Shown: positions 8,701-49,081 of the stretch, piece after piece
Layout of the letters: every line of letters starts with the position of its first letter
Position numbering within the stretch: position 1 is the stretch's first letter
From: an uncultured bacterium
GTDB taxonomy: Bacteria; Babelota; Babeliae; Babelales; Babelaceae
Reading direction: 5' to 3'
Assembly: GCA_963848965.1 (NCBI GenBank)
Contig: CAWKFG010000001.1
Location: 320,001 to 384,000 of the forward strand
Length of the DNA stretch: 64,000 nucleotides
The notes under the pieces: generated by a model
What the model saw: the letters and a program-made list of their open reading frames with translations, nothing else
What the model was told of the DNA's origin: nothing
Database searches by the model: none
Program-made: the position numbers and the translations under genes

Positions 8701-9585
8701 CTATGTAAGTTTCTCCTCTAATGTTTCTTTCACATAACTTAATAACGGTATAGCTGCTGCAATACGGATAGTACGAGGAGTAAGCCCTTTATAGAGTTCT
8801 TGTATACCTTTTTCTCGTGCTATTTTTAGCGCAGCATCTAAGCTTCCTTTGTAAAGCTTTTTTGAAAGATCACGCTTGAGGGCAGTGCTTATAGAGTCAC
8901 AGGGATGAGTAAGAATGCCTGCTATTAATCCAGCAGGAACACCAGTGGCTATCGTATCACCTATGCGACTACCTGTAGTAATTCCTAAACGCTTTTTGAG
9001 CATATCGCCCAAGGTTATATATCCTACAGTGAATCCACCGTCTCTTATAGCTGTTGGTATAAGGCCACGATAAAGCTTTTTAAGATTACTGTAAGATACT
9101 GGATTATGCATATCAAAAATCTCTTGGATAGTACGAGAAAGCGTATCTTTTATCACTTGTCCTTGCTGAATTACAAGCATATCAGCAGGACTGCTTGCAA
9201 GTGCGGATGTGCCGCCGGCTATGAACGCTGCAGCAGTTTTTTGTGCATCTGAACCATTAAGATAAGGACTTAAAAGGCCGTTGATACCTACTTGTAGTGC
9301 AGTTATAGGCGCCATACTCGCTACATTAACACCATAACCTTTATAAAGCTGTTTTAAGAGTGATAATGCCGTTCTGTTTGCTGTATCAGAAGCTGTACCT
9401 GTTTGTAACCGATTTTTTATTGCTTGTAACATTTGTCCTACAAGAGTTACTTCACATGCACCAGCAGTGGCTCCAATAAGGCTATTTTCAAGCATTGTTA
9501 ATGATCTTTTTTGAGGTTTTTCCATAGCATACGAATATGAGCAGAGCATAGTTGTTATACTCATAAGTATAGGTAAAGTATACAT
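8701..9585 (-). CDS. Mitochondrial carrier family (SLC25-like) protein with N-terminal signal peptide
   Basis: Three internal repeats with SPADM/HPCDS Px[DE] motifs and LYKGY/LYRGL/LYKGL motifs. Confidence 0.8.
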   Translation of the reverse strand: MYTLPILMSITTMLCSYSYAMEKPQKRSLTMLENSLIGATAGACEVTLVGQMLQAIKNRLQTGTASDTANRTALSLLKQLYKGYGVNVASMAPITALQVGINGLLSPYLNGSDAQKTAAAFIAGGTSALASSPADMLVIQQGQVIKDTLSRTIQEIFDMHNPVSYSNLKKLYRGLIPTAIRDGGFTVGYITLGDMLKKRLGITTGSRIGDTIATGVPAGLIAGILTHPCDSISTALKRDLSKKLYKGSLDAALKIAREKGIQELYKGLTPRTIRIAAAIPLLSYVKETLEEKLT

Positions 9586-9720
9586 AAAAATACCTTTATT
9601 TTATATTATAAATTAATATTAAGAGCATAGTACAAGGAACGTGCCTTTAAGCCACAGGTTTGTATATGCTTTTTGTAGCAAAAACGTAATTGTATTAATG
9701 AAATAGAAAATATTTTGTCC

Positions 9721-9852
9721 TTATCGGACAAACAGAGAAATAATAAAAGTAATCAGTGGAAGAAAGAAAGGAAGGGTAGAAATAAGAGAAGATGAAGAAA
9801 GATGTGAACGTTTGTGTATTTCACAGGCATACGACGTATGTGACGTATACAT
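9721..9852 (-). CDS. Candidate 43-aa peptide with hydrophobic C-terminus (MYTSHTSY...FIISLFVR)
   Basis: Not in ORF track; AAAGG upstream of ATG. Confidence 0.3.
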   Translation of the reverse strand: MYTSHTSYACEIHKRSHLSSSSLISTLPFFLPLITFIISLFVR

Positions 9853-10153
9853 AAGGATACCTTTCATGTAAAAAAAGTTAAAATAATATAATATCATAGT
9901 TTATAGTATGCGATAGAATTTCAAAAAGTCAAGAGTTTTTTGAAGTGTATTACATTAGTACATGAGGGACTCTCTTGGGTGGGATTTTTTAGATATATCC
10001 TTAATATACGCATGAATAGCTATAAAGAAGAAAATTATTTGTCCGTGGTGCAAGACACTAGTATGAAAGAAGCAATCTAATTATTGCTATCTGGCAATAT
10101 GGTTGAGTATGCTAAAGATGATACTTGTATATGCTCAAAGATAAGGGGGAAGT

Positions 10154-10360
10154 ATGAGCAAAAAATTATATTCGTTTTTAGCAGGTGCTTTTACCTTGTG
10201 CGCTTTTAATCACCGGCTTCAAGGATGCCCAATTTGTATAGATTCATTAGGTGCTATCAAAAAGCCATTTTTCTGTTCTGATGAAGAGCAGTTAAAAGTT
10301 CGCATAAAATCACATCAACAAGAGATACATAAACTGTTAAGCAGTGAAGAAATTGTGTGA
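10154..10360 (+). CDS. Small exported protein with CxxC (GCPIC) after signal peptide
   Basis: AAGGGGG RBS, signal-peptide-like N-terminus. Confidence 0.55.
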   Translation: MSKKLYSFLAGAFTLCAFNHRLQGCPICIDSLGAIKKPFFCSDEEQLKVRIKSHQQEIHKLLSSEEIV

Positions 10361-10541
10361 AAGCTTTGGTCTATAATTTTTTGAACGTTATTGAAAAAAT
10401 TTTATCTTCATGTACAATTGTAATAAATTGTTTTATGATATAGTAACTCAATGTACTATCTGTGCATAAAATAGGTGTGAGAACAAAGCACACTAGGTAT
10501 AGGGGAATAAAAAACTTCAATAATATAGCCAAGAAATAAAT

Positions 10542-12623
10542 ATGATAATGAAAAGCTTACTATTATTAGTTCTAGTCTCTAGTGGTTATACTTTTGCTAT
10601 GGAGAGTGAACATGCGCCTATTCAAGAGCAAAGTACCCAAAAAGATTCTGCAGAACTTCTCTCTGGACAAGCTTCTAAGAAAGCAAAATTTTCTGGACAG
10701 CAAGGAACTTTTGAATATGTTCATTCGTGTGAAGGATGTGGTACTTTATTTAGTCAGCTACCTGATTTACTAGGACACGAACAGTTCTGTGATGCGTTAA
10801 AAAATAAAGAAAAAAATCACTTAGGAGAGTTACAACATGCTGAGATAACTATACCATCTATGAATGGACATAAGGAAGAAAATGGTACGACACCTATGGA
10901 ACTATCATATATGCCCTTCAATGGAGCTAGTTTTACATTTCCTCCTGTTGTTGTACACTCAGAAAGTGCTGACATTGATAATGCTGATGAGGAGCTAGTA
11001 TCTATAAAAATTATACCAACTCCAGAAGGAAGTTTATTTCAGTGTGTACCTTGTGATGCTCTTTGTACTCAAGCAGAACAGATACGAGCGCATCTTCATG
11101 AAAAACATTATAAAAGAAAAAAATTTGTATATGAATCAGCTAAAAACAGGTATAAGTGTGATCAATGTAATGCAACTTTTGAACTTCCTGCACAAATAAG
11201 AGACCATCTTTTAAAGCACACAAAACAAGCGAGATTCTCGTGTGAGATATGTGATAAAGATTTTAAGCTTAAATCTGAATTAGAAAGTCATAAGAATAGT
11301 CACAAAAAAGGGGAGTCGTCACCGAGCGTTACTACTCCTGTAAGCACAATTCTGCCACCACATATATCACCAGTAACAGTTCCCCTTAGTACAGTGGGAA
11401 CACCTCATTGGCAAAATTTTATCAGTGTTTTGGGTAAGGAGCCCGAAAAAGTTCCTGAGCAACCTAAGCATTCTACGAGAGCTCCAACGTTGGCAGAAAA
11501 GTTGGCAGCTTTGAGAAATTCTAGAGAACTTCGTGTAAGTACTCCCGCCCAAGCGCTACCAAACACATCTATTACTCAAGGGATAGTACTTAATAACCTT
11601 AAAGATTTAGTTAAAAAAGAAGAACCTAAAGTAGTTTCTTCTCCTTTATTAATACGATCAGTATCAGCACAAGGGATTGTTCCTGAGGTTGATATAGCAG
11701 GGTATATAGACATTAAGCTTGCTGGTGCTTTTATAAACAAAGCAATTGAACTTGTCCAAAAAAGTTTGGGCTATAAGATACCTTTAGATGAAATAAATGC
11801 ACTTTTGGTTAAGGTATATGAAGCTCTTATTCTCCAGAGTATTGATGGGAAAATTGATAAAAAACTTGTAGACAATATGAAGTCGTATATATTTCAAAAG
11901 ATGGTATTTGGAGCCACTACAGCTACGCATAGTTTGCCAGATGTGCTCGGTACTCTTACTAAGCATTATAAAGCACATACTTTTTATCTACAGTCTGTAA
12001 ATCAAGGAGATGATTGGTCCTGTGGTTATTGGGCTGTATTTAATGCGCTTGCTTTAAACTATCTTCTTGAAAAAGGCTATGCTGTTACCTCAGACCATCT
12101 TCAGACACTTACGCATGATAAAGTCAGAAAACTAATTTCTAATGTGCCTAAACAGTCAATTGATGAAGCTCAGTTAATGGCTCTTATTCATGCTCAAGAG
12201 TTAAAAGATGTGTTTATACTAACTTTTAATCAAAAGAATAAAAATGAACAATCTCTTTTGGCATGTACTTATGAAGGTCCTTATGATGAAAAAGAGGATA
12301 GTAATCCGTATTCTACGGTAACATTTACTCAAGAGCAGAATGAGTTTACTGAGATATTTGCTTTACTCCGTGAGCGTATTAAACAAAATGATAAAGCACG
12401 TGCCTACCATTTTATTTGTAATTTAGAAGCGTATCATTGGATTCTTATCTCTATAGTAAAGCGTGTAGATAGAGGTCCTATTATAATAATTCTCGATTCT
12501 GCTCAATTTCCTGTACCACATCGAGGAAATGAACAGTATATCACATTTTTATATACGACATTTATACAGCCGTTTTATCAGCAGATACAAGCCTCTATTG
12601 GCGAGCAAAAAGAAACGGTATAA
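10542..12623 (+). CDS. Secreted C2H2 zinc-finger protein with C-terminal papain-fold (Josephin-like) cysteine protease domain
   Basis: Fingers such as CDQCNATFELPAQIRDHLLKH and CEICDKDFKLKSELESHKNSH; QGDDWSCGYWAVFN...HWILI...ILDS. Confidence 0.7.
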   Translation: MIMKSLLLLVLVSSGYTFAMESEHAPIQEQSTQKDSAELLSGQASKKAKFSGQQGTFEYVHSCEGCGTLFSQLPDLLGHEQFCDALKNKEKNHLGELQHAEITIPSMNGHKEENGTTPMELSYMPFNGASFTFPPVVVHSESADIDNADEELVSIKIIPTPEGSLFQCVPCDALCTQAEQIRAHLHEKHYKRKKFVYESAKNRYKCDQCNATFELPAQIRDHLLKHTKQARFSCEICDKDFKLKSELESHKNSHKKGESSPSVTTPVSTILPPHISPVTVPLSTVGTPHWQNFISVLGKEPEKVPEQPKHSTRAPTLAEKLAALRNSRELRVSTPAQALPNTSITQGIVLNNLKDLVKKEEPKVVSSPLLIRSVSAQGIVPEVDIAGYIDIKLAGAFINKAIELVQKSLGYKIPLDEINALLVKVYEALILQSIDGKIDKKLVDNMKSYIFQKMVFGATTATHSLPDVLGTLTKHYKAHTFYLQSVNQGDDWSCGYWAVFNALALNYLLEKGYAVTSDHLQTLTHDKVRKLISNVPKQSIDEAQLMALIHAQELKDVFILTFNQKNKNEQSLLACTYEGPYDEKEDSNPYSTVTFTQEQNEFTEIFALLRERIKQNDKARAYHFICNLEAYHWILISIVKRVDRGPIIIILDSAQFPVPHRGNEQYITFLYTTFIQPFYQQIQASIGEQKETV

Positions 12624-14988: not shown

Positions 14989-15384
14989 TGTTCCAATAAA
15001 GCATTTTTTATCAATGATACTAATTTATAGCTTATGTGTGAAGAGATAAGGCAGTGCTTCAGATAAAATATGCTCATTTGGTATAATTACTAAGTTTTGC
15101 TGAATCAAAAATTATGTTACAATTAAACTAAGTTTTAATAGTAATTAAAAAATATTGTGCAGTATTTATCAAACGGTAGAGAAGAATACTGATAATGCTC
15201 TTAATTTTTCGCAGGTTTCTTTGTAAGTAAAGATACCGATAAAAAAGTGAAGAACATCAACGCCCTTCAACGACTTCTGGTAAGCCTGAAAATGAGCGTG
15301 CCAACTCTCGTAATCAAAAGTAAAAATCTATATTCTATGCGCTTCAGCCTTAAAGTAATAAAGAGCAAGTTTTCATACAATTCC

Positions 15385-29324: not shown

Positions 29325-30683
29325 TTAGCTGATGAGGCATTTACTTTTTTGTTGTGGATGCTGTGGCAGCTCATATTCATGATCTTTAATAATATTAAAT
29401 ATCGTATAAATGTTTAACTGTGCAAGTATTGAATGAATGTCAAATAAATAAGCTGTACCATTAAGAAAGACGCTAAGGGCATAGTGACCTTTTGGGTGTG
29501 TTATAAGAGAGGGTGTATATGCTTTCACATTTTTTACATTAAATCCTAGAGCGATATCTTTAATAAATGTGTGTTCTTTAAGATCCAGTATTCTTAGTCT
29601 AAGCTCTTTGGTAAGTGCTCTAGGATAGTTGTCAAAGGTTGTAACTAGAGCATAATGCTCGTTATGTGTGGTTGTCATACGTAGAACAGATTCTCGCCCG
29701 GGAAGCCTAATTTCGTGGTCTATTTTGTCTGTCGTAAGATTTGCTACATATATAAAGCCATGGCCATCGGCTAGATAAAGAAAATTTCCATCTTTACTGT
29801 AGGTAAGGACATTAAAAAAAGCATGGCCGGGCTTATCATAGCGTATATGGCGAATAGATCCGTCTCTAAGTGATACTAGTTCTATTGCTTGTTCAGATTG
29901 TGAAGCTACTGCAAATTGTGTCTTATCTGGATTAAATGCACCTTGGGCCATAGATGGCTGAAAGTGTGTAGGCTGGCCGTTTGGTATTGGTATTACAGTA
30001 TTTTCTGGAGAGGAAGATACTATGTTTTTTATATAAGTAATTCGTTTATCAGTAGTGATAACAATACTGTTCATGGAGTCTTTATCATTACTAAAAGTTA
30101 CCATTACTGGTGTTGATGGTAATGTATGTTCTTGTAAGCATATGCCAGTCTCTAGACTCCAGACTTGCATTTTATTATGGCGTGTTCCTACTAGTGCATA
30201 GTTACCATCGTTGCTTATTGCTAAGCACGAAATAATTCCTTTATAACCACCAAATTTTAGTTTGCATTCATGAGTAGTGATGTCAATAAGGTAACAGTAG
30301 CACTGGACATCGGATCCAAAAAGAATATATTTACCATCAGGAGTAAATTCACCACATGTGAAAATTGTATTGGCATTTTCTACTGTATTTATTGGTGGTA
30401 TAAAACCAGCTATAGAGGGCTGTGCTGGTGAATATTTCATGAGAATATACGAATAGCGCTCAATAAGATACTGTAATAAGCTATCCTTAACAGGATATGG
30501 TAGGCTGTTTAGTTCATTAATAAGCTTTTCTCGCTGTACTGTAGGCGCTGTATTTATTTGTTTTCTAAGTGCTGTAATACAGCTTTCAAATAGTGAAGAA
30601 AAGTGCTTATTTTCAGGTGGTTCCATGCCTTGTAAAAGAGTAAAGAAAGAGCAGAGAAAGAGTATATTTTTTATATGATGCAT
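29325..30683 (-). CDS. Secreted WD40-repeat protein with SOCS-box-like N-terminus and CaaX C-terminus
   Basis: FTPDGKYI, ISNDGNYALVG..VWSLETG repeats; SLFESCITAL...LPYP; ends KSKCLIS. Confidence 0.75.
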   Translation of the reverse strand: MHHIKNILFLCSFFTLLQGMEPPENKHFSSLFESCITALRKQINTAPTVQREKLINELNSLPYPVKDSLLQYLIERYSYILMKYSPAQPSIAGFIPPINTVENANTIFTCGEFTPDGKYILFGSDVQCYCYLIDITTHECKLKFGGYKGIISCLAISNDGNYALVGTRHNKMQVWSLETGICLQEHTLPSTPVMVTFSNDKDSMNSIVITTDKRITYIKNIVSSSPENTVIPIPNGQPTHFQPSMAQGAFNPDKTQFAVASQSEQAIELVSLRDGSIRHIRYDKPGHAFFNVLTYSKDGNFLYLADGHGFIYVANLTTDKIDHEIRLPGRESVLRMTTTHNEHYALVTTFDNYPRALTKELRLRILDLKEHTFIKDIALGFNVKNVKAYTPSLITHPKGHYALSVFLNGTAYLFDIHSILAQLNIYTIFNIIKDHEYELPQHPQQKSKCLIS

Positions 30684-30780: not shown

Positions 30781-31644
30781 TTATGCGGCAGCAGCGATCG
30801 TTTTTTCTATGACTAGTTGCGGGATCTCTACTTTTTTCAAGCTTTGATAATATGGTTTATTATATTTATCGAAGTAGAGAATACCATCATCAGTCCAGCT
30901 AAAGTTTTCAAAGCTAATACACTTATCTTCGATGCACTTGAAAGGGATAGACAGAATCCATTGAGCAATAAGAGGATGACGCATTTGACAGTGAGAGGGA
31001 TGTTTATTGACCTCTTCATGTTCAATAATAACCTGTAGATTAACGACTCTTTCAAGTTTATTGATACAGCGACTATAAAAGCCAAGTACGGTTTGCACAA
31101 TATCCTTTTTGGAGTAGAGGTTGCAAAGATGTTTAATAATTTTCATATTTGGTGCATACCTTTTTAAATGAATAGGAGTAGCAAGTAAATAGACATGATC
31201 AATAAGATACTCTTTGCTTGTGCTATTTTGTTGTAGAAGGGTGCTCCTATAGCTCATGATGCTATTCTGTGCTAGAAAAAAAGGGTCTTTCTCATTTTTG
31301 GATGCTTGTGTATCGTCTAAAGGAGCGAGTAGTTGGCTTGTAAGATTAATTACGTTGCCTCCATGACTGTGGCCTATAAGAGTAATTTTTTCTGTAGTAT
31401 AGCTTAAAATTACCTTTGCTAGTGCTTCTGCAGCTTGTATTCGTGCTATATGGCTCAGTTTACCAGACCAGGTAAAGGAGACCACTTTTTCGTCAAACAT
31501 CCGAGCTTCTTCTTCAAGTATTTTATAAAAATCTCCTTTAGGGCCGCACCAGAGAGCATCTGTGGCAAATGTTCCATGAACGAGGATAACTACTGGATGG
31601 GTAAAGGTACACCATAAAGCTAAAATAAATAGTACTTTTTTCAT
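30781..31644 (-). CDS. Secreted alpha/beta hydrolase (lipase-like)
   Basis: LVHGTF, GHSHGG nucleophile elbow, LATP, YS..D; AAGGAGG RBS before ATG 31644. Confidence 0.8.
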   Translation of the reverse strand: MKKVLFILALWCTFTHPVVILVHGTFATDALWCGPKGDFYKILEEEARMFDEKVVSFTWSGKLSHIARIQAAEALAKVILSYTTEKITLIGHSHGGNVINLTSQLLAPLDDTQASKNEKDPFFLAQNSIMSYRSTLLQQNSTSKEYLIDHVYLLATPIHLKRYAPNMKIIKHLCNLYSKKDIVQTVLGFYSRCINKLERVVNLQVIIEHEEVNKHPSHCQMRHPLIAQWILSIPFKCIEDKCISFENFSWTDDGILYFDKYNKPYYQSLKKVEIPQLVIEKTIAAAA

Positions 31645-31864
31645 GAGCCCCTCCTTACTCTTTTTTTTTACAATAATAGGCTCTAACTCCTGTGTCAACA
31701 GTTCTCTTGAAGTTTTGTTAGGTCACTTTTTCAAGTGTCAAGCAGGGTTAAATTGTGCATGAAAAAACATATTTTTACACTAAATGTATTGCTAGTTTAA
31801 GCAAGTCTCTGGTAGTCTAATTCAGGAAATAGAGTATGCATAACACTTTAAATAAGGATCTAGT

Positions 31865-32145: not shown

Positions 32146-33039
32146 ATGATAAAATACATATTGTCTGCAGCAGCTTTTTTCTTTATAGCAGCTCTTAATG
32201 GTATGGAAAAAGAAGCAGCTAGCTTTTTGGCACTGTTGCCAAGTGAGCTTGGGTGTCAGATTTCTGGTACTTTAATTTCTCAGGCAGTAAAGGATATTCG
32301 CGATCTGCAGTTTAAGCTGGCTTCAGAACGACGGGACTCACTTATACCACCCCTATTTTTGAGTTTTAGTAAAATTGTTAATGACTACATCAAGAAATAT
32401 TCTCCATTATTAAGTAATTCTGACTGTTTAGCATTCTTTATTGAGCAACTTTTTTCTGAGCTAGGATTCCGTAATTTGAGTCAAGAATTAAACCTTATTT
32501 TATATGCTTTAAACCCGCCAACAACTTCCAGGAAACAGTATCCTCAGGCAAGCAGTTATGTATCTGACTGGCTGCAAGCAATCCCACATCCGGCTGTAGT
32601 CAGATGGCTTCAAATAAGTTTGAACAATCCTGCCAATAAAAACACTGCTGAAAGTATTTTTTGGGAAAGTTTTTCTGTTTTTTTCGCGAATATGCCTGAA
32701 TATAACGATCGTCTTGCGTTAATACTTAATGCGCTTTTACAAGCAGGTATTGATATCAATATAAAACGCAAAGAAGATGGCAATACGCCTTTAATGGTTG
32801 CAGCTTCATTCTTTAATGCTCCTGTAGTACAATTTCTCCTTGCTCGTAAAGCAAATCCTCGTGAGCTTAATACAAAGGGTCAATCTGCACTTACTCTTGC
32901 TCAAGAGTCTTATGAGAAACTTTTAAAGCCTGCAAAGTCTGTATTTTTCGGTACGGTAACTTTAGAAATTTCTCAAAAGAGATTGGATGATATTCGTGAG
33001 ACGATAAGACTTCTTACTCAAGCAAGTTCAAAGTCTTGA
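32146..33039 (+). CDS. Secreted ankyrin-repeat protein with F-box-like N-terminus
   Basis: FLALLPSELGCQI; DGNTPLMVAA...VVQFLLARKAN. Confidence 0.75.
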   Translation: MIKYILSAAAFFFIAALNGMEKEAASFLALLPSELGCQISGTLISQAVKDIRDLQFKLASERRDSLIPPLFLSFSKIVNDYIKKYSPLLSNSDCLAFFIEQLFSELGFRNLSQELNLILYALNPPTTSRKQYPQASSYVSDWLQAIPHPAVVRWLQISLNNPANKNTAESIFWESFSVFFANMPEYNDRLALILNALLQAGIDINIKRKEDGNTPLMVAASFFNAPVVQFLLARKANPRELNTKGQSALTLAQESYEKLLKPAKSVFFGTVTLEISQKRLDDIRETIRLLTQASSKS

Positions 33040-37057: not shown

Positions 37058-40000
37058 CTATTGTCGTGCATGATATAAATAGTGCATGAGTAGTAGTTCA
37101 GTTATGAGTGCAAAATGGCCTGCTATAATGGCCATAAAGCGCGCTGATGTTACTTCAAAACATGCTGCTATAGATACACTTGTTTCTATCTGTGTAGTAG
37201 TATAGTGGCCATCATTCTGTAATTTTTGTAAAGAAATTGCATAGTCGCAAAAGAATCTAAGGATCTGAATATAAAAGTAGTAGAGCCCTTGGCCTATGCC
37301 GTAAAGGCCATTTGTGTTGTAAAAATAGCTGTAGGCTTTTATGGGGCTGTTAAGAAAGTACGAAAGAAAATAATCCACAGTATGAGTAGAACTCAGCGTG
37401 TATAATGTCCCATCACAGCCGATAGAGTATGCTTGACGACCATTTGTCAGCTGCATCCCTAAAATTTGGGTTAAGCATACAAAAACATGGCCCGGCATAA
37501 GGTCGTTTATAACATGATTTGTGGTGCTGTTTGTCAAAGTAGCACTATAGTCACTTGTTGGTTCATCATGAGCACTTATATGATATTTTAGAAGTTCAGG
37601 AGTCCATCTAAAATGAATATCTTCTTGTGCAGTGTTGAGTAGAAAGCCATCGTAGGTGAGCGTATACTGTAACCATAACCAATACAAAAAGAAGCCACAT
37701 ACAGGCAAGAAAGCTGCACAGAGAAACTGAGCTATCTTCTTATTCGAACATTGAGCTCTTGTATTGGATTGTATGATGTCCAAATGTTTACCCAACAACT
37801 TTGCAATACCCATATGTATATCTTTTTTTAGATCTGTATATATATGCTTTAAAAACAATGCTTTTTCCTCTTGTGGTAATGCAGTAAGGTTAATCTCTTT
37901 GCTAAGAGAGATAAGGGTTTTCTTGGCCTCTAAATAGTTATCTGTGCTTATACATTGAGCTCTATTCTCGAGCCACTTTCTCATGCCGAGTTTTAATAGG
38001 TGTAAGAGAGTAGTAGCCTCTTTGATATTAAAAAGGAGATTAGCTTCTGGAATATGAGCAAACAGTTTAAGTACTTCTGAATCATTGTTAAAAATAGACT
38101 GTGCGAATGAAGTAAAAGATACGCGCGCTTGTTGTGCTAACGATTTACCTACTGTTGTAAGTAGATACCCTCTACTAGATTCCGGAAGGTTAGCTATATC
38201 AAGTGTAGCATTCCATTGACTAAGAGTTCTTTCAAGAGAGCCTCTTTCCTTTATATGCTCCAATGCTTCTCCATTTTTTTTGATCCATCCTTTTATGCCT
38301 GCTTGTAAAAGATCATAAGTACATGTGCCAGGCACAACAAAGCTCAATGCTGTTTTACGATCTTTGTTCATAAAGAGGGGATTTGCGCCTGCGCGAACAA
38401 GCAGCTCTAGAATATTATCGTGCTGGCGCTGTGCTGCATACGTGAGAGCAGTATAACCTGCAGTATCTTGTTTATCGACTTCTATACCTTGTGCAGCAAG
38501 AAGAGAATGGCATGCTTCTGTGCTATTATTATAGGCTGCTATCATTAAAGGAGTAAGCCCTTGAGAAGTTGTTTGATTTACGTGAACCTTTTCTGCTTCT
38601 AGTACTTCACTATTATTTTCATAAGCTGCCACCATTAAAGGAGTCCATCCTTGAACTGATATATTTCTCTGTTCTTTTTCTCTAATGAGAGAAACTTTTT
38701 TCTCAAGCTTTTGCTGTTGCTCTTCTTGAGCAAGCTCGAGAGGAAAAGTTTGTAATAAAGAACGTGTAGCTCCTTTTAAAGGCGCATAGTCAAGTACTCC
38801 TTTACCGCTACTATCTTTGGCGTTTATATCAGCACCTTTACTTAAGAGCAGTTTAATAGCTGCGCTATATTCTTCTTGTGCTGCGAGCATTAGTGCTGCT
38901 TGCCCTTGAGAATTTCTATAATGTATACAGTAAGGATAAAGTTCTAAAAGCTTTTCAATTAAAGAAGTTGCTTTATAACGTATAGCAGTATGTAAAAGTT
39001 CGCCTGCATGATGAGGCTGTAGTACTATAAGATTTCGTTCTAATAAGGTGATGAGTTGAGATGTATTTCTTTCTATCATACTCTGTACGGTTTTTATAGA
39101 GAGTTGTGGGTATGTGTTACCCATAGAAGTAATAGCTCTATGATGTATGTCACCATGGTCTTGCACTAACTGAAAACATCTTGTAAGGCAGCGTTCTAGA
39201 AAGTACTCTTTAATCTGCTGACTTTTAATAAGGGCCTCAAGAGTTGTGCGATCTTGTAGAGTAAGGGCAATAAGGAGTGCGTCATTGCCTTCATCATCTT
39301 CTTGAATATCTGGTACCTGTTCAAGCATTTGTAAAGCGGCAGTTCTTTTTCCTTTTTTGACTGCATAAAGAAATAAATTGGTACCTTGTTTGTCAATTCT
39401 CATAGTTTTAAACTCTTTACAAAGCTCTATTCCTCTCTGGTCTAAATGATCTTCCATAATTTGTTTTTTGAGAATTGTAAGCTTTTCTTGAGCTTGTACT
39501 TTCTTTTCTTGTTCTAAAGGTTCTTGAGCTGGCTTTATTCTCTTGAGAATAAGCTCCTTAATTTCTTGACATGTTGTTTTGTCTATATACTTATAAAGAG
39601 GGATTCCATGTATTTGTTGATAAAGATCTGCGTTTGCATTGAGTAAAAGCCTAATCATTTTGTGATCATTATTTTTAAGTGCATAATAGAGAGCTGTTTG
39701 ACCAAAAGCATCTAGTGCATTAAGAGAGGAAACACTAAGATGTAGCCTTGCTTTTAGAAGATTTTGCTGAGCAACATAATAGAGAAACTCATTTGCTTGA
39801 TGTTCTTTTATCCATAATTGTTTAAGAGTCGCGTATCTATCAAAACATTTTATTATATCGGTTAATTGCCTTTTCTGCGCAATAATAAAGGCAGTTTCGC
39901 CTTTATTGTTTCTTATAGTTTCATCTGAATATGGTAATAATGCTTCAAAGAGCAAAGGTTGATTATAAGATACAGCATGGATAAGTGCTGTATTGTTTTC

Positions 40001-41158
40001 AATATCCTGTAGAGCAGGATCGGCACCGTTTTCAAGGAGAAGTTCAATAACCGTTTTTGCGCCTTGTACTAACGTATCTGTAGTTGCATAGCATTTACAT
40101 GCCTGCATTAAGGGAGTAATACCATGTCTGTCCTGTCTATTGACTTCAGCTCCAGAAGATACTAGTACTCGAATGATTTCAATATATTTCGTAAGAGCTT
40201 GTTTATTATCTACTAAAGATATGTGTCCAAGAGCATGAGCTAAGGGGGTAATCCCTTCTTTGTTTGCTTTATTTATAAGGACAGAATTGGCAAGTTCCAG
40301 AACACATAAAACCTCTCCAGAGCTAATACCATAGTGTAAGGCGGTGTTACCATTTTTATCGTGGTCCAAAAGATGGCCATTGTGCTTAAGAAGAGCGCGA
40401 ACCACGCGCCATTGGCCTTTTTTTGCAGCATGTATCAAAGGCGTTAGCGCAATATCAGTGTTTATGTCTGTAGGTGACACTTTAGATTCTTGTTGAGAAG
40501 AAAGCTGTTGTGCCTGTTGCTTTGCAAGGCTTTCAAGATGAGCCATAAGAGGTTGTGATTTTTGTACTTGTGGATAAAGAGTAAGTATTTGTGGTACTGC
40601 AGTTTTGCAAGATGGTGTACATTGTACAAATATATATAAAGGAACCCTGTTTTCTGCTGTTATTAAAAGCTTATAGACAAGTTGGTTACCTCGTTGCTCT
40701 TTCTTGATAATGTGAGTTTTTCCGGTAGTAACAATGCCCTGTACATACCGTATTATATCTTCTGTAGCCCAATGATAAGGGAAAAAAGCCTTTGGTTTAG
40801 GTAGTAGAGTGCCTTTATAAATGATAAAGCCTTCATGAAAGTCATGTATGTTTTTTGAAGTAACTATCCAAAATTCTGGCGAAATTTTATAGACTGTGCC
40901 GTATCCAAGATCTTCTATGATAGGATCAAGAAGAGCACACCAGTGCAAGCCTAATATTCTTGCTGTATGATCTTTGGTGATACATTGGTAAGCACTAATG
41001 TGAGTGAGTACATCCTCTAATGATATATCATAATATTTGTTATCAAGCGAAAGAGAGATGGTGGTACTTTTTCCTTTTTCTTTCTCCATGCCAAAAGAAG
41101 AGAGAAAAAAGCACAACAAAAAACTTTGAAAGTATAAAAGTATAACATATGTACTCAC
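37058..41158 (-). CDS. Large secreted protein: EndoU-like nuclease domain, many ankyrin repeats, C-terminal hydrophobic region
   Basis: THI...ILGLH...KAFFPYHW..EDI...ILTLYP; repeated GxTPL/TAL ankyrin motifs. Confidence 0.75.
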   Translation of the reverse strand: MSTYVILLYFQSFLLCFFLSSFGMEKEKGKSTTISLSLDNKYYDISLEDVLTHISAYQCITKDHTARILGLHWCALLDPIIEDLGYGTVYKISPEFWIVTSKNIHDFHEGFIIYKGTLLPKPKAFFPYHWATEDIIRYVQGIVTTGKTHIIKKEQRGNQLVYKLLITAENRVPLYIFVQCTPSCKTAVPQILTLYPQVQKSQPLMAHLESLAKQQAQQLSSQQESKVSPTDINTDIALTPLIHAAKKGQWRVVRALLKHNGHLLDHDKNGNTALHYGISSGEVLCVLELANSVLINKANKEGITPLAHALGHISLVDNKQALTKYIEIIRVLVSSGAEVNRQDRHGITPLMQACKCYATTDTLVQGAKTVIELLLENGADPALQDIENNTALIHAVSYNQPLLFEALLPYSDETIRNNKGETAFIIAQKRQLTDIIKCFDRYATLKQLWIKEHQANEFLYYVAQQNLLKARLHLSVSSLNALDAFGQTALYYALKNNDHKMIRLLLNANADLYQQIHGIPLYKYIDKTTCQEIKELILKRIKPAQEPLEQEKKVQAQEKLTILKKQIMEDHLDQRGIELCKEFKTMRIDKQGTNLFLYAVKKGKRTAALQMLEQVPDIQEDDEGNDALLIALTLQDRTTLEALIKSQQIKEYFLERCLTRCFQLVQDHGDIHHRAITSMGNTYPQLSIKTVQSMIERNTSQLITLLERNLIVLQPHHAGELLHTAIRYKATSLIEKLLELYPYCIHYRNSQGQAALMLAAQEEYSAAIKLLLSKGADINAKDSSGKGVLDYAPLKGATRSLLQTFPLELAQEEQQQKLEKKVSLIREKEQRNISVQGWTPLMVAAYENNSEVLEAEKVHVNQTTSQGLTPLMIAAYNNSTEACHSLLAAQGIEVDKQDTAGYTALTYAAQRQHDNILELLVRAGANPLFMNKDRKTALSFVVPGTCTYDLLQAGIKGWIKKNGEALEHIKERGSLERTLSQWNATLDIANLPESSRGYLLTTVGKSLAQQARVSFTSFAQSIFNNDSEVLKLFAHIPEANLLFNIKEATTLLHLLKLGMRKWLENRAQCISTDNYLEAKKTLISLSKEINLTALPQEEKALFLKHIYTDLKKDIHMGIAKLLGKHLDIIQSNTRAQCSNKKIAQFLCAAFLPVCGFFLYWLWLQYTLTYDGFLLNTAQEDIHFRWTPELLKYHISAHDEPTSDYSATLTNSTTNHVINDLMPGHVFVCLTQILGMQLTNGRQAYSIGCDGTLYTLSSTHTVDYFLSYFLNSPIKAYSYFYNTNGLYGIGQGLYYFYIQILRFFCDYAISLQKLQNDGHYTTTQIETSVSIAACFEVTSARFMAIIAGHFALITELLLMHYLYHARQ

Positions 41159-41448: not shown

Positions 41449-42339
41449 CTATAATACTGCACATACTCTATAAGGGATGTGCGGCTGTTTGGGAATGATT
41501 AAGAGATCATTATTATCCATGATAGAAATGATAAAGTGATTGATTGCAATTTCATTAGCTATACTTCTTTGCTTATCTAAAAGTGTTAGAATAGAAGGAA
41601 GCTGCTTAATAAACGCTTCTTTAAGAAGAAAGTCATTATGCCCAGGGCTTGCGTTGTTGAGTAAAATCTCAGCTTGTATAATGTTTTTGTGTGGCTTAAA
41701 TATACGCTCTGAAAGCACAGGTATCCCATAGGAAAATCTCTGTGGATCACATATTTGAGCAAAGTCTGTAGCAGAATAGAGATGGTAGATTTTCTTAAAA
41801 AGAGGAGATGTTATATAAGTACAAGTGTTTTCTTGTACAGGACAGGATATTAATACAAGTCTGTCGACAGTAAAGGAGTAATTATTTTCTTCTTCTGCTA
41901 TTTTAGCAAGATAGAGAGCAATAGTAGCGCCATGACTATGTCCTATTATAGTGAGTGGCTCTTTGCAATGTTTACATATCCACTTATAAAGAGATCGTGC
42001 AGCTTCTAAACGAGCATTTATGGTAAGCTTACCAGACCATCCATAAAGGTAAAAAGAGTCAAGAGGAAATTCCTCTGGTGCTATAGTAGCTAATAAAGAT
42101 GCAATGCGGCCGAGTGTAGAGTATGTTGGTTGTTCTTTGGCATAACAGGCACCAGCAGGGCTGTATACACCATGATAATAATACGAGACGATCGGAAACA
42201 ATGTTCCATGAATAAGAATGGTACTGTTTTTAGAGGGAATTTGTTGAGAGGGAACCGTTTCTCTTTCCATTCCTTGTAAGCTTATAGATGCCACCAAAAG
42301 CATATAAAAAATAGACAGTATTTGCACCATAATTTTCAT
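41449..42339 (-). CDS. Secreted alpha/beta hydrolase, paralog of 30781..31644
   Basis: IHGT, WSGKL...R..AA..L, GHSHG, LYS.TD. Confidence 0.8.
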   Translation of the reverse strand: MKIMVQILSIFYMLLVASISLQGMERETVPSQQIPSKNSTILIHGTLFPIVSYYYHGVYSPAGACYAKEQPTYSTLGRIASLLATIAPEEFPLDSFYLYGWSGKLTINARLEAARSLYKWICKHCKEPLTIIGHSHGATIALYLAKIAEEENNYSFTVDRLVLISCPVQENTCTYITSPLFKKIYHLYSATDFAQICDPQRFSYGIPVLSERIFKPHKNIIQAEILLNNASPGHNDFLLKEAFIKQLPSILTLLDKQRSIANEIAINHFIISIMDNNDLLIIPKQPHIPYRVCAVL

Positions 42340-43078: not shown

Positions 43079-43087
43079 ATGTTTCCT

Positions 43088-44422: not shown

Positions 44423-44462
44423 ACTCTCTGCTCCTCAGAAATTTATGTCAGTATAGCATGTG

Positions 44463-45029
44463 CTAATGAATAAGGAACCACATACCAATAAAAATAGCAA
44501 GAGCTCCTATGGCAAAATAATAAAAATATTCATTAAGATAGTACTCAAGCTTATCTCCCCATATGCTGATACCTGTGGCAATAGCAAAGAAGCGTATGCC
44601 TCGTGCAATAAGCGAGAAAAAAATAAAAGGCAAGAGTGGTAACTTACAAAAACCTGCAGTAAGAGTAAGTGCTTTAAAGGGCATAGGAGTAAGAGCTACT
44701 GCAAATACTGTCCATGCTTGATATTTTTTAAACTGCTCTACAAGAATATCAAACTTTTCTTGAGAGATAAAAAAACTAATAATATTTTTTCCAGCAGCGT
44801 TCCATAACATGGTTCCTAGATAATATCCAGCTATTGCTCCTAAAGCAGAAGTAAGAGTAGCAATAGTCGCATACCAAAAAGCTTTACGTCGATTTTGTAG
44901 GCAATAAAATGCCAGTAGTGTGCTTACTGGTACTATAAAGAACCCCTCTATGAATACTAGAAGCCCAAAGAGGGAAGTTCCATAAGGAGAGTGTACATGC
45001 TTACCGAGCCAATTATAAATACCCTTCAT
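44463..45029 (-). CDS. YqaA/DedA (VTT-domain) membrane protein
   Basis: TPMPFK..TLTAG, RGIRFF motifs. Confidence 0.8.
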   Translation of the reverse strand: MKGIYNWLGKHVHSPYGTSLFGLLVFIEGFFIVPVSTLLAFYCLQNRRKAFWYATIATLTSALGAIAGYYLGTMLWNAAGKNIISFFISQEKFDILVEQFKKYQAWTVFAVALTPMPFKALTLTAGFCKLPLLPFIFFSLIARGIRFFAIATGISIWGDKLEYYLNEYFYYFAIGALAIFIGMWFLIH

Positions 45030-46342
45030 GCAGCTCTTTCTGTCTGCTTTAAGTAGTCGTGAATACGCTCAAATGGTATACGCTCTTGAAGCATGCTATC
45101 TCTGTGACGTATTGTTACTTGCTGGTCTTGAGCACTTTCAAAATCATAGGTAAAGCAGAAAGGAGTACCTATTTCATCTTGACGTCGATATCGTTTGCCA
45201 ATGGAGCCAGATGCATCATATTGAAGCATATATCCTTTACTCTTATAGTCTTGATAAATCTTTTCCATAGGTTCAGTCTGCTCTTTTGTAAGAGGCATAA
45301 AGGCTGCTTTATAAGGAGCAATTTGTGGAGCAAATTTAAGCACAACGCGCGATTCACCATCGACTATATCTTCATGATAAGCATCAAATAAGAGTGTTAA
45401 AAGCAAACGATCGGTTCCTACAGAACATTCGACAACATGAGGAACATAAGAAGTTTTTGTCTCTTCATCAAACACAGAAAGGTCTTTACCTGAGTATTTC
45501 ATATGCTGAGTAAGATCGAAGTTTCCTCTATTTGCAATTCCTTCAAGCTCCTTCCATCCAAAAGGAAAATGATATTCTATATCAGAAGTAGCTGTTGAAT
45601 AGTGAGAAAGCTCATCTTTTTCATGTGCACGTAATCGTATTTTTTCGGGATCTATCCCTATCGTTGTATAAAACTGTTTGCGATGTGCTGTCCAGAACTC
45701 AAAGAATTTAACTGCAGAAGATGGCGTGCAGAACCACTCTATCTCCATTTGTTCAAACTCTCTCATCCTGAAAAGAAATTGCTTAGGAGTAATCTCATTA
45801 CGAAATGCTTTGCCTATCTGTGCTATACCAAAAGGAATTTTTACGCGGTTACTTGAATAAACATTCTTGAAGTTAATAAATATCGATTGCGCTGTCTCCG
45901 GTCGTAGATAAGCAATTGAACTCGTATCTGTAGATGCTCCTACATGCGTTTTAAACATAAGATTAAATTGACGTACATCTGTCCATGTTTTATTACCGCA
46001 ATGAGGACATGGCTTATTAAGATCTATATCATCTGCTCGAAAGCGACGTTTACAGGTAAGACAATCTACCATAGGATCTTGAAAACTTTGTACGTGGCCA
46101 GATGCTTCCCATACTGCATGAGGCCCAAGAAGAGCTCCTTCAATATAAAGAATTTCAAGGCCCGTAGAGTTGAGAGACTGTGTCCAAGCAGCACGAATAT
46201 TGTGCTTTAAGAGAGCTCCCAACGGTCCTATGTCATAGACGCCATTAAGGCCCCCATAAATCTCTGCTGATTGGTAAACAAAACCACGCCTTTTACAAAG
46301 TGAAACAAGCTTTTCAAGAGTAACAGATGATGTATGTGTCAT
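45026..46342 (-). CDS. glyQS: Glycine-tRNA ligase, alpha2 dimeric type
   Basis: LCKRRGF..EIYGG, LRPETAQ, FRNEITP..F.FR.REFEQME, IGKRYRRQDEIGTP. Confidence 0.96.
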   Translation of the reverse strand: MTHTSSVTLEKLVSLCKRRGFVYQSAEIYGGLNGVYDIGPLGALLKHNIRAAWTQSLNSTGLEILYIEGALLGPHAVWEASGHVQSFQDPMVDCLTCKRRFRADDIDLNKPCPHCGNKTWTDVRQFNLMFKTHVGASTDTSSIAYLRPETAQSIFINFKNVYSSNRVKIPFGIAQIGKAFRNEITPKQFLFRMREFEQMEIEWFCTPSSAVKFFEFWTAHRKQFYTTIGIDPEKIRLRAHEKDELSHYSTATSDIEYHFPFGWKELEGIANRGNFDLTQHMKYSGKDLSVFDEETKTSYVPHVVECSVGTDRLLLTLLFDAYHEDIVDGESRVVLKFAPQIAPYKAAFMPLTKEQTEPMEKIYQDYKSKGYMLQYDASGSIGKRYRRQDEIGTPFCFTYDFESAQDQQVTIRHRDSMLQERIPFERIHDYLKQTERAA

Positions 46343-46674
46343 TAAAATCTCCTACTGCAGTCAGACGCTTCAGTATGTCCAACACCCATAGTTCTTTACC
46401 GGTTATAGTACGCTATCAAAAGAAAAATAGTTATTTTATGTACTTCTATAAGTATATACCACTCTGCTTATTTGAGCAATGAACAGTACACAAGGGGGAA
46501 TTATAAATCAGTATACTACTTGTTCTTTTATGTGTATAAGTGCTTTCTATAAGGTTAACTTGCGAGTTAAGAATTTTTATGACAAAAATAAATTGCTTAC
46601 TCTTGACTTCATTTATAAATTAAGACTACTATAAAGTCATGCTGCAGTATTAACCACTTAAAAAGGGAGGCGAT

Positions 46675-47553
46675 ATGAAAGTGAATTTTACTGCGAAACG
46701 GATAGCACTTGCTCTCTTGTTAGCACCGATAACGGGTGTACAAGGGACTGGTTACGGCTATTATGCTGGTAATAACGGGGCGTGTTGCCCGCCAGTAAGC
46801 TGTGGCTATGCACCGTTCGAATGTGGCGCACTCAACTTTGAATTCAAAGCGGGTGTAGCGCCAAAAATATGGACAGACAGGGACAGAGTGTTCGGTGTAG
46901 CACCTCAAGTTCCGTCACCACGTGGGCCGTTTGTTGACCTTGTGAAACTTCCACGTTTCCGTTGCTTATACAAGCTACCATGGACTGTAGGTTTTAAGCT
47001 TGGATGGCTCTTAAGCTGTAACTTGGAAACATTCCTTGAGTTTAACTATACTCAAGCAGATGCAAGAAGAAGATTCAGCTTTGGAGTTCCATTAGACGGT
47101 GTTAGCGCATCAGTTAATGTACGACCAACAAACAAGCTTAAAGAATTCAGCGGATTCTTAGGTACACGTTACTATTGGAACAGATGGTTCTGCAATACAA
47201 CGTCATGGTTCTTTGGTGCGAAATTGGGTGTAACTCATACTCGTGCTCGTTGCTTTGACTTTGTAGTTTCAGGAATTCCAAATACAACAGACTTTACTTC
47301 AGATGTTGGCAGATTGTTTGACAGACATACATCTGTAGCTGGCGGAGTTCATACTGGTTTTGATGTTAAGTTGTGGTGCGGCTTCTCCTTTGTATTCACT
47401 GCAGAGGTTGTAGCAAGCTGCGGTCCTCGTGGCAACCAAAACTTTATCCAAAGTACTCCTACACCAGGACTTGGAATTACAAGTGTACATATTGGATCAG
47501 TCGGTACGGAAGTTACATTCCCAGTTACCTTCGGTCTTCAATATACATTCTAA
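46675..47553 (+). CDS. Cys-rich putative outer-membrane beta-barrel protein
   Basis: Strong RBS, signal peptide, CCPPVSC, amphipathic strands, terminal GLQYTF. Confidence 0.65.
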   Translation: MKVNFTAKRIALALLLAPITGVQGTGYGYYAGNNGACCPPVSCGYAPFECGALNFEFKAGVAPKIWTDRDRVFGVAPQVPSPRGPFVDLVKLPRFRCLYKLPWTVGFKLGWLLSCNLETFLEFNYTQADARRRFSFGVPLDGVSASVNVRPTNKLKEFSGFLGTRYYWNRWFCNTTSWFFGAKLGVTHTRARCFDFVVSGIPNTTDFTSDVGRLFDRHTSVAGGVHTGFDVKLWCGFSFVFTAEVVASCGPRGNQNFIQSTPTPGLGITSVHIGSVGTEVTFPVTFGLQYTF

Positions 47554-47572
47554 GAAAGCTTTTGGGTTTTCA

Positions 47573-47602
47573 GGGTATGCTCTCGGGCATACCCTTTTTT
47601 TT
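47573..47602 (+). terminator. Rho-independent terminator
   Basis: GGGTATGC...GCATACCC followed by long T run. Confidence 0.8.
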
Positions 47603-47605
47603 ATA

Positions 47606-49081
47606 CTACTCTGTTTTTGAAGCTCTTTCTTTTTCTGCGTTTTCCAGAAGTTCACGTATAGCATTCCTTCTTTCTATATATACATTGATGTCATTTGTAT
47701 CTATCTGCATAATTTCTAATATGGAGTAAATATCTCCTTGTTGGTACATAAGATGTATGTTCGCTTTATATTTAGGTGAAAGAAGAAGCTTAATCATCTC
47801 TATGTTACCCTTTTTTACTGCAACCATTAAAGCAGAGAAATGTAAGTGAGTTCCTTTTAATTGATGGTTTATATGTGCTCCATGCTCTAATAGAAGTTGA
47901 ACAATTGTAGTATGGCCTGTAAGGGTCGCTGCAATTAACGGGGTTAATCCTCCCCTATTTTCAAAATTAACATCAGCTTTATTAATAAGTAGAAACTCTA
48001 TCATTTCTTTATGGCCGAAAGCTGATGCAATAATTAAAGCAGTTTGTTGTGCAGAGTCAAGTGGTTCAATATTTTGATAAAGGAGAGAGCCATACGTATT
48101 TTGCATGTTTAAGGGACTTTGGAGACCATTAATACGAGCACCATTTTTAAGAGCGATATGAGCTATTTCAATATTGTTATCTGCAGCTGCTATACACAGT
48201 AGATCTGTAGCTTTTTGCTCTTTATTTGGATCTGCTTTTAAATACTGATCCAAAAATACTAGGGCTTGCGGAGTTTTTAAGGTAGAGCAAACGAATAATT
48301 CATTGATTTGGTTTGATGCTAGATCTTTTACCACTTTAGCAGACTCATCAGAGGTTGCTCTCTCGTATGAGGAGGCGCACATGCTTTGATATATTTGTTT
48401 GACTTCATCAAAAGTGATAGTATTATTAATTGGTACATTTAGAGCCCAGTTAGCTATTTCTTGAGCTAGTTGTGCAATAAAAGGCCTCTCTTGAAACATG
48501 AGTGTAACTACTGCTTCTGACATATCTTTTTCTTGAAGTGAATGTTCTTGAAAATATTTTTGAACTTCTTGGCTAAAGAGTTGTTTTTTTATTTCTGGGC
48601 CTTTTTGGAGTTGCTTAAAGTGAGCGATGAAAGTTTGACCAGTTGTTGTTTTTTTACAAAATTCGGCAAAACGGTCTATTTCCTTGTTGCTAAAGAGAGT
48701 TGTTAACTCTTGAATAACATATTTATGAAGTGGTTCGCTCTCATAATATTGCTTACCCACAGAAAGAAAAAGTCTCATTTTTTCTATAATTTTTTTAAAG
48801 TTCTCAAGATCTGCGGCTGCGGCAATTTTAAAAGGAACGGCGTTAGAAGCTAAAAAGTGATGAAATCTAACATATTCAGCGTCCTCAGGAGTAGGGGTAG
48901 GGTTTAATAAGTCAGGGTTGTTTAAAAAATTCGTAAGTAAAAAAACTTGAGCAACAAGCTCTGTTGGCAGCTTACTGAGGAACGAAACATCATTTTTAAG
49001 GTGGCCTTGCTGTAATGCAGATTCCATGCTAAATAATGGAAAAGCGAAAAGCAGCATCCCTAAAAAGTAGTTTTTCAACAT
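47606..49081 (-). CDS. Secreted ankyrin-repeat protein with F-box-like N-terminus
   Basis: FLSKLPTELVAQVF; TALIIAS.FGH, GLTPLIAA..GH ankyrin repeats. Confidence 0.78.
   Translation of the reverse strand: MLKNYFLGMLLFAFPLFSMESALQQGHLKNDVSFLSKLPTELVAQVFLLTNFLNNPDLLNPTPTPEDAEYVRFHHFLASNAVPFKIAAAADLENFKKIIEKMRLFLSVGKQYYESEPLHKYVIQELTTLFSNKEIDRFAEFCKKTTTGQTFIAHFKQLQKGPEIKKQLFSQEVQKYFQEHSLQEKDMSEAVVTLMFQERPFIAQLAQEIANWALNVPINNTITFDEVKQIYQSMCASSYERATSDESAKVVKDLASNQINELFVCSTLKTPQALVFLDQYLKADPNKEQKATDLLCIAAADNNIEIAHIALKNGARINGLQSPLNMQNTYGSLLYQNIEPLDSAQQTALIIASAFGHKEMIEFLLINKADVNFENRGGLTPLIAATLTGHTTIVQLLLEHGAHINHQLKGTHLHFSALMVAVKKGNIEMIKLLLSPKYKANIHLMYQQGDIYSILEIMQIDTNDINVYIERRNAIRELLENAEKERASKTE

Follow-up and report, generated by a model that had tools for sequence, protein, structure and literature searches.

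A Met-Glu pair behind predicted signal peptides as a candidate mark of host-directed-type cargo in a Babelota genome

Short codes at a newly exposed N terminus govern the sorting of proteins after cleavage in several systems, including the +2 rule of Escherichia coli lipoproteins, the lipoprotein export signal of Bacteroidetes, and the PEXEL motif of Plasmodium, cleavage of which leaves an end with Glu, Gln, or Asp as its second residue and sends the protein into the host cell. The Dependentiae, widespread obligate parasites of protists, send as much as half of their proteome out by the Sec pathway. Here we describe a two-residue mark, Met-Glu, that stands directly behind the predicted signal peptides of seven proteins in a 64,000-nucleotide stretch of DNA (the window, G000:C1:320001-384000) from an uncultured bacterium of the Babelota (family Babelaceae) and that recurs across its genome. 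The likeness to PEXEL and the lipoprotein codes would be one of logic, a short code at the new N terminus routing a translocated protein, and not of homology; those systems use signal peptidase II or plasmepsin V and other residues.

Among described rules, we compared the mark with the Q-rule of Bacteroidetes, in which Gln occupies +1 of signal peptidase I substrates and is cyclised to pyroglutamate, as set out in parts of PMC5837995 and PMC10653852. The two are alike in being lineage specific, in concerning the first exposed residue of a large share of the exported proteome, and in being thought to act after cleavage. The Q-rule differs in that it extends to most of what a phylum exports and depends on a glutaminyl cyclase, whereas the mark described here is Met followed by Glu, occurs on one cargo class only, and excludes envelope proteins. 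The Q-rule itself does not account for our data, with Gln at +1 in just 14 of 126 non-Met sites. For the Dependentiae, the portions of the genome papers used here (PMC6561590, PMC4378268, PMC4776705) report that one cultured species has signal peptides on 44% of its proteins overall and on 78% of its ankyrin proteins, and a second on 79 of its 126 ankyrin proteins, and describe type II secretion/type IV pilus-like genes with secretins as the only known outer-membrane route. Those portions, supplements not covered, contain no residue rule at the cleavage site, and the literature searched, again excluding supplements, yielded no description of a Met-Glu rule.

The genome under study (1.73 Mb, 37% G+C, 5 contigs, 88.7% complete) matches in content what has been published for Dependentiae, with the same signal-peptide share, secretins, and GspE-type ATPases. 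An N-terminal hydrophobic signal is present in about half of its open reading frames (ORFs), an ankyrin-type motif occurs in 127 ORFs, and a TLC ATP/ADP transporter is encoded. Our ORF set consists of the longest frames of at least 60 aa with overlaps removed, which kept 1573 of 3497 frames and 88% of the DNA. Cleavage sites throughout this work are predictions from our own profile and rules.

Under a strict rule, in which an ORF must begin with an uncharged hydrophobic segment and the first charged residue behind it is scored, 794 ORFs qualified, and Met-Glu formed the first polar step after the segment in 133 of them. Glu was the first charged residue in 318 of the 794; Met stood directly before that Glu in 133 of the 318, against a background of 1.06% for Met before Glu (binomial p about 1e-171). 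The pair followed a hydrophobic segment in 2 of 515 discarded ORFs, which served as decoys, and followed 5 of 1093 hydrophobic segments deeper inside proteins. When Met residues at positions 13-46 after a hydrophobic stretch were considered (n = 437), the next residue was Glu in 153, Gln in 49, Lys in 40, and Asp in 13, as compared with Glu in 21 of 534 internal Met residues lacking such a stretch. Cases were spread over the genome, with 3-14 in every 100-kb bin holding at least 20 candidate ORFs. The motif is thus confirmed as real and far beyond chance.

A wider count, which used a profile of positions -10 to -1 and accepted Met at the best or second-best predicted site, gave 224 ORFs in which the predicted +1 residue is Met, or roughly one ORF in seven. 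The second residue among the 224 was Glu in 124, Gln in 30, Lys in 24, Ser in 8, Asp in 6, Ala in 6, and Asn in 4. In a cleaner exported set with a polar mature start and no further membrane helix (n = 244), Met occupied +1 in 118 proteins and Gln in 14, and a crude rule-based predictor, which is noisy and often places a hydrophobic residue at +1, returned Met as the commonest +1 residue (84 of 490). An earlier note on this DNA, which had described Met-Glu in the seven window proteins, captured a motif that does recur genome-wide and named its main form, but it had just 7 of at least 133-224 cases, and Met proves to be the constant element, followed by Gln and Lys as well as Glu.

To describe which cargo carries the mark, we surveyed 464 kb (the window plus C1:400-620 kb and C4:400-580 kb) containing 218 signal-bearing candidates. 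The Pfam scan covered 187 of these, namely the full set of 67 in which Met precedes the first charged residue plus the 120 longest among the remaining 151, and left out the 31 shortest candidates (<147 aa); classes were sorted by hand from the Pfam names. Met occupied predicted +1 in 47 of 70 proteins with eukaryote-like domains (Ank, WD40, zf-C2H2, MYND, IBR, RING, UCH, TPR, DnaJ, dual-specificity phosphatase, Mito_carr, and MutS_V) and in 0 of 30 envelope, membrane, or housekeeping proteins (BatD, TamB, three HtrA, two OEP, M23, amidase, NamZ, FtsW, and others), a class in which some housekeeping entries, such as EF-Ts and an epimerase, are surely false signal candidates (Fisher p = 3e-11). 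The corresponding counts were 3 of 18 for other enzymes and 24 of 69 for proteins without a Pfam family. By eye, 5 of the 23 eukaryote-like misses have Ala, Gly, or Cys followed by Met a few residues past the site picked by the profile. Signal peptides were present on 62 of 70 ORFs with at least two ankyrin motifs, and in 58 of the 62 (52 by script, 6 by eye) a residue from the set Ala, Gly, Ser, Cys, and Thr is followed by Met.

The complete absence of the mark from the 30 envelope or housekeeping proteins rules out a general preference of signal peptidase for Met. The signal peptides of Met and non-Met exported proteins are alike in length, hydrophobicity, and n-region charge, with a median of one Lys or Arg before a 16-residue uncharged run and a maximum hydrophobicity of 2.8 in both; because they are otherwise alike, the difference between the classes is confined to +1/+2, and we rejected a separate targeting route for each class. 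Together these comparisons strongly indicate that the mark distinguishes two classes of exported cargo, as the earlier note had proposed. The marked class is made up of proteins with eukaryote-like domains and lineage-specific orphans, and envelope residents lack the mark. Because effector-like and envelope proteins differ in it, the motif is usable as the genome-wide predictor envisaged there, and it selects 224 proteins, including 24 of the 69 exported proteins in the survey that have no Pfam family.

Two groups of exported proteins in the same regions are unusual in their own right. Two MutS domain V (ATPase) proteins of ~1000 aa lie behind signal peptides (G000:C1:404295-407330 and L044:5308-8358, that is, G000:C1:445308-448358), one with a junction of Ala then Met-Glu and the other of Gly then Gln-Glu; an exported MutS-like ATPase is odd. 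Between 400 and 520 kb of G000:C1, several metabolic enzymes have signal-like N termini and no Met at +1 (L046:7111-8604, L050:495-1976, L042:11550-13013, and L047:8057-9502), comprising a thioredoxin-reductase-like protein with thioredoxin, a glucose-6-phosphate dehydrogenase, an amine oxidase, and an arabinonolactone-oxidase-like protein.

The mark is carried by many unrelated proteins. Clustering of the 224 (blastp, 1e-5) yielded 91 groups, of which 78 are singletons and the largest, with 106 members, is linked by ankyrin repeats. Of the 78 singletons, 42 have Glu at +2, 6 have Gln, and 1 has Asp. An acid occurs in the two residues after Met in 71% of cases. For the first two mature residues of exported proteins without Met, the figure is 28%, against an expected 21%; because of this difference, Glu is tied to Met and is no general feature, and a general rule of Glu after the cut, only weak in the non-Met proteins, was discarded. 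The Glu codons occur at GAA:GAG = 89:44, which equals the genomic ratio, so the signal lies in the protein and a DNA-level motif is ruled out. A mobile signal-peptide cassette was likewise rejected, as leader DNA (150 nt of upstream sequence plus the signal codons) is alike in just 59 of ~25,000 pairs; 32 of the 59 are paralogues, and the remaining 100%-identical ones are overlapping divergent intergenic regions. Taken as a whole, these sequence comparisons strongly indicate convergent selection for Met-Glu.

We next consider the site at which the proteins would be cut. When the 133 strict cases are aligned on Met, -1 is Ala, Gly, Ser, Cys, or Thr in 129 (Ala 49, Gly 39, Ser 26, Cys 8, Thr 7), Tyr, Gln, Leu, and Phe are frequent at -2, and -3 is Leu in 53, Ile in 18, Ser in 16, Val in 13, Thr in 12, and Ala in 9, with Met and Cys also present. 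Leu at -3 is commoner here than in E. coli. Signal peptide lengths peak at 18-21 residues, and positions +3 and +4 are biased as well, toward Lys/Pro/Gln and then Glu/Asp/Pro/Ala. A leave-one-out profile of positions -10 to -1, blind to the Met, selects Met as +1 in 104 of the 133, in line with the cut before Met assumed in the earlier note. A positively charged n-region, a hydrophobic h-region, a length near the usual 18-25 residues, and small residues at -1/-3 are all evident, as expected for Sec substrates of signal peptidase I, and the genome encodes one such enzyme within the window:

3677..4552, + strand: signal peptidase I (Peptidase_S26), the sole match in the genome (88.7% complete).

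Because it is the only signal peptidase I found, this enzyme is the presumed cutter in front of Met. Most likely, then, the leaders are ordinary Sec signal peptides that the single signal peptidase I cuts directly before Met, and as a consequence, the exported class would mature with a Met-Glu end, Met-Gln and Met-Lys being rarer. In G048, the closest relative sampled, two signal peptidase I genes stand in tandem (G048:C1:103312-105509) and are 69-70% identical to the single copy of the window; several other relatives have 2-5 matches.

Other signal types were set aside. A lipoprotein signal for signal peptidase II does not fit, as +1 is Met and Cys occurs at -1 only (8 of 133). Class III signals of type IV pilins are cut after Gly ahead of the hydrophobic segment and have Glu at +5. 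In the proteins described here, the hydrophobic segment precedes the cut and the mature part is polar, so a pilin or pseudopilin signal was rejected too. The possibility that Met is the real or an alternative start codon, with a cytoplasmic form made beside or instead of the exported one and the "signal peptide" an artefact of ORF extension, draws on the codon being always ATG and in frame and on one public gene call, that of homologue P0005, that begins at this Met. Of the 224 genes, however, 60% have a Shine-Dalgarno-like 4-mer at 4-17 nt ahead of the first start and 1% have one ahead of the Met; the corresponding figures are 46% for 344 non-exported ORFs at their first starts and 10% at 2457 internal Met codons. 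In addition, a full n/h/c signal-peptide build lies upstream of the Met in more than 200 genes, and the pattern is all but confined to retained ORFs, as the decoy count given above shows. We reject Met as the true start, and a start at this position in any form is scarcely credible. The earlier note had set beforehand three outcomes that would speak against it, namely a cut elsewhere, Met as the start codon, and Met-Glu being equally common in periplasmic proteins, and all three came out in favor of the motif.

The seven window proteins in which the mark was first seen all translate at their N termini exactly as the earlier note wrote them, with the last three signal peptide residues and the first three mature residues given here in one-letter code:

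8701-9585, - strand: mitochondrial carrier (Pfam Mito_carr), SYA MEK; signal peptide 9526..9585 (20 codons), Met-Glu 9520-9525 (ATGGAA).
10542-12623, + strand: C2H2 zinc-finger protein (Pfam zf-C2H2), TFA MES; signal peptide 10542..10598 (19 codons), Met-Glu 10599-10604 (ATGGAG).
29325-30683, - strand: WD40 protein (Pfam WD40), LQG MEP; signal peptide 30627..30683 (19 codons), Met-Glu 30621-30626.
32146-33039, + strand: ankyrin protein (Pfam Ank), LNG MEK; signal peptide 32146..32202 (19 codons), Met-Glu 32203-32208.
37058-41158, - strand: 1366-aa ankyrin protein (Pfam Ank), SFG MEK; signal peptide 41090..41158 (23 codons, GTG start), Met-Glu 41084-41089.
41449-42339, - strand: alpha/beta-hydrolase-like protein (weak Pfam), LQG MER; signal peptide 42271..42339 (23 codons), Met-Glu 42265-42270.
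47606-49081, - strand: ankyrin protein (Pfam Ank), LFS MES; signal peptide 49028..49081 (18 codons), Met-Glu 49022-49027.

Domain names given previously held for six of the seven (Mito_carr, zf-C2H2, WD40, and three Ank), but "EndoU" and "protease" found no match at E <= 0.01, and the "hydrolase" at 41449-42339 has only weak alpha/beta-hydrolase or thioesterase Pfam matches. A check by eye revealed no further protein with a signal peptide and Met-Glu in the window. The window's envelope proteins, comprising BatD, three HtrA-like proteins, an M23 peptidase, an Ig/beta-propeller adhesin, and an OMP-like ORF, lack the motif as had been claimed; the BatD junction reads FLGA then ES, and the others have no Met there.

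Several neighbors of these genes merit mention. A second member of the hydrolase family (30781-31698), 10 kb from the Met-Glu member, has a signal-like N terminus with no Met at the junction and an HGT motif soon after the leader. The three HtrA-like trypsin-fold proteases lie within 8 kb (49290-51011, 51074-52642, and 55369-56952), with a clear PDZ domain in the first only. A cluster of small ORFs of 66-90 aa with signal peptides (22518-22787, 22920-23192, and 23751-23951) includes two with similar leaders and may represent small secreted paralogues. Finally, the N terminus of the ORF at 57109-58569 resembles a serine recombinase by eye; next to it, G+C falls to 0.34 at the window end (60001-64000), and the region may be a mobile element.

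To place the mark among relatives, we sampled 60 genomes of the phylum, all from the same order and divided into families f1-f12. Random 100-kb samples of eight relatives, which contain almost no ankyrin genes and fall mostly outside effector regions, yielded 0-1 Met-Glu cases among the 26-47 candidates of each of six genomes, 6 among 45 in G001 (f2), and 2 among 65 in G005 (f3), where another 6 have Met-Asp. Ankyrin-rich stretches were more informative where they occur; the f1 genomes G024, G059, and G050 have 0-1 ankyrin matches in total. In G048 (f1), whose signal peptidase is 70% identical, Met follows the signal peptide in 14 of 24 signal-bearing ankyrin ORFs. G052 (f1) has a signal peptide then Met in 6 of 12 ankyrin ORFs (followed by His, Glu, or Asp, with His in a paralogue set), and in G002 (f2), all 5 of 5, which are paralogues, have Met-Glu. 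Single cases of signal peptide and Met occur in G054, G006, G037, and G035 (f3), G034 (f6), G031 and G039 (f10), and G046 (f12), and none of the four ankyrin ORFs in either G019 or G043 has the combination. The crude predictor placed Met at +1 in 16-19% of cases in G001, G002, G005, G052, and G039 and in 0-4% in G059, G050, G024, G054, G036, G019, and G043; the -10 to -1 profile passed only 0-15 sites per relative, too few for power. By lineage, the second residue is Glu in this genome and G002, Glu and Asp in G001, and Asp in G005 and G037. The rule therefore reaches beyond this genome into several families of the order, and some lineages lack it. The earlier note had missed that relatives follow it with other second residues.

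In G041 (f10), G040 (f6), and G036 (f3), Met appears only within other conserved c-region motifs. G041 has ~45 ankyrin ORFs with a nearly invariant signal peptide (L100-L103, G041:C1:1389001-1429000 and others), the leaders ending in a c-region of the T-T-N-A-L-P-A-A type, and G040 has a motif of its own, S-V/M-Y-A-A-Q-E. Both represent conserved ends of leaders on effector families, each specific to its lineage.

Among individual families, homologues of the carrier occur in 9 of 41 f1 genomes, this genome counted, at 33-41% identity, and 7 of the 9 keep the junction Met (5 as Met-Glu, 1 as Met-Asp, and 1 as Met-Gln), with tails between the Met and the first helix that differ in length and are not alignable. 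In a collection of 5.8 billion proteins, Met is kept in 6 of 8 signal-bearing carrier homologues. The homologue P0005, without a signal peptide, begins with Met-Glu at the matching place, which may reflect a truncated gene call, and a eukaryotic carrier begins within a few residues of the matching Met position. In the hydrolase family, most homologues have Ala then Glu without Met, including a paralogue in this genome, and another paralogue lacks a signal peptide. Most of the 150 best representatives of DUF6829 are listed without a signal peptide, the nearest among those listed (53% identity) has Ala then Met-Leu, and the distance from Met to the first conserved motif falls merely within a wide range. 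Neither the carrier nor the DUF6829 protein had a match in G048, G052, G050, G059, or G001, and the WD40 protein at 29325-30683 is an orphan outside its repeats, with only a generic WD40 match among the 5.8 billion proteins.

We propose that the Met-Glu end is a selected cargo mark on host-directed proteins that would be read after cleavage by a sorting or export step of the bacterium's own, acting after Sec and parting proteins bound for the outside from those that stay in the periplasm or outer membrane. As for its origin, the Met was probably once the start codon of a cytosolic or foreign gene that gained a signal peptide when its 5' end was extended; selection would then have kept the Met and placed Glu behind it. 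We favor a bacterial reader, if only tentatively, because Glu is preferred over Asp and because the second residue shifts between lineages, as it might with a co-evolving receptor. A more specific version, by analogy to PEXEL, is possible though on balance doubtful: Met-Glu would be a post-cleavage export code, and a receptor in a secretin apparatus would pass folded, eukaryote-like effectors from the periplasm to the host, with related lineages using dialects such as Met-Asp, Met-His, or c-region motifs like those of G041 and G040. The genome encodes three secretins and two T2SSE ATPases, which include the following:

G000:C4:767163-774663: three secretin-domain genes side by side (open frames of 1153, 818, and 796 aa).
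6241..7413 of the window, + strand: GspE/PilB-type (T2SSE) ATPase, one of two in the genome.

The Met-Glu proteins may be cargo of such an apparatus. Nothing in our analysis ties the motif to the ATPase at 6241..7413, which the earlier note had named. Several further points weigh against a bacterial reader. To our knowledge, no linear N-terminal signal has been found for type II secretion, and the six-helix mitochondrial carrier, which bears the mark, has no way out of the inner membrane as a soluble substrate of type II secretion. In G048, the second residues are varied and partly hydrophobic (Arg, Leu, Gln, Val, Ile, Thr, and Ala). In G040 and G041, many exported ankyrin proteins have a residue other than Met at +1, so the mark is no general requirement. 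The start-codon origin of the Met is weakly based, given that the P0005 call may be truncated and that the DUF6829 distance range is wide.

The reader might instead be the host. In the cytosol of a protist, a Met-Glu end would resemble that of a host-made protein and present no degradation signal, with the Met trapped by selection because N-degrons are what signal peptidase would expose in its place and because 7 of the 9 single-base changes of ATG give Ile, Leu, Lys, or Arg, all primary destabilising residues. The parts of a review used here (PMC11735805) assign N-terminal Asp, Glu, Asn, Gln, and Cys to Arg/N-degrons and Arg, Lys, His, Leu, Ile, Phe, Trp, and Tyr to primary N-degrons, and state that signal-peptidase products can be N-degron substrates. 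The restriction of the mark to host-directed-type cargo suits this explanation, as does the rarity of Leu, Phe, Ile, Tyr, or Trp after Met (9 of 224), and the predicted +1 residue is destabilising in 78 of the 126 exported proteins without Met. The same parts of the review give Met-Asp/Asn/Glu/Gln as the substrates of NatB, and 164 of the 224 predicted mature ends have a dipeptide of this type. According to them, however, NatB is ribosome bound and acts co-translationally, and because the bacterial protein would arrive from outside, the earlier note's idea of Met-Glu acetylation by host NatB is weakened. NatB and the N-degron rules also treat Glu and Asp as equal, yet Asp is nearly absent in this genome and Glu outnumbers it 42:1 in unrelated proteins; Ala, Ser, Thr, or Gly would stabilise equally well, and G048 has ends such as Met-Leu, Met-Ile, and Met-Val. 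We consider a host reader unlikely, while giving it real weight.

Two explanations dispense with a reader. The Met could be a mere relic, the old start codon left behind when a signal peptide was gained at the 5' end, with no present function and common because the genes are young. The bearer families (Ank, WD40, zf-C2H2, TPR, DnaJ, and Mito_carr) occur elsewhere without signal peptides, as do most DUF6829 homologues; the bearers tested are accessory or orphan, two having no match in five relatives and one no true homologue; one homologue lacking a signal peptide begins at Met-Glu; and most of the hydrolase family lacks the Met, one paralogue having no signal peptide at all. A relic leaves unexplained, however, why 42 of 78 unrelated proteins have Glu at +2 although Met-Glu begins just 23 of 344 non-exported ORFs, why a cleavage-type site directly abuts the Met in 129 of 133, and why the Met is kept in carrier homologues whose tails cannot be aligned, and we judge it improbable that this is the whole account. 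Alternatively, Met and an acid could sharply end the hydrophobic core, provide an early mature region compatible with export, and so aid precise and efficient Sec transport or cleavage of recruited proteins that fold fast. The frequency of an acid after Met and the biases at +3 and +4 agree with a role in export, and one signal peptidase I serves both classes; yet envelope proteins are cut by the same enzyme without the mark, the signal peptides of both classes are otherwise alike, Asp should work as well as Glu, and the second residue varies between related lineages. An effect on export efficiency has a similarly low probability in our view, and a bacterial sorting step that reads the mark remains the explanation that we prefer.

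As a sharp two-residue feature, the mark offers a sequence-only predictor of effectors, including orphans without any domain. It bears on how host-directed cargo is told apart from envelope residents and makes that sorting testable. After the Q-rule, it would be the second lineage-specific rule governing which residue signal peptidase I exposes, and one specific to a cargo class. It also suggests a route by which foreign or cytosolic genes may be recruited for export, through the grafting of a signal peptide ahead of the old start codon.

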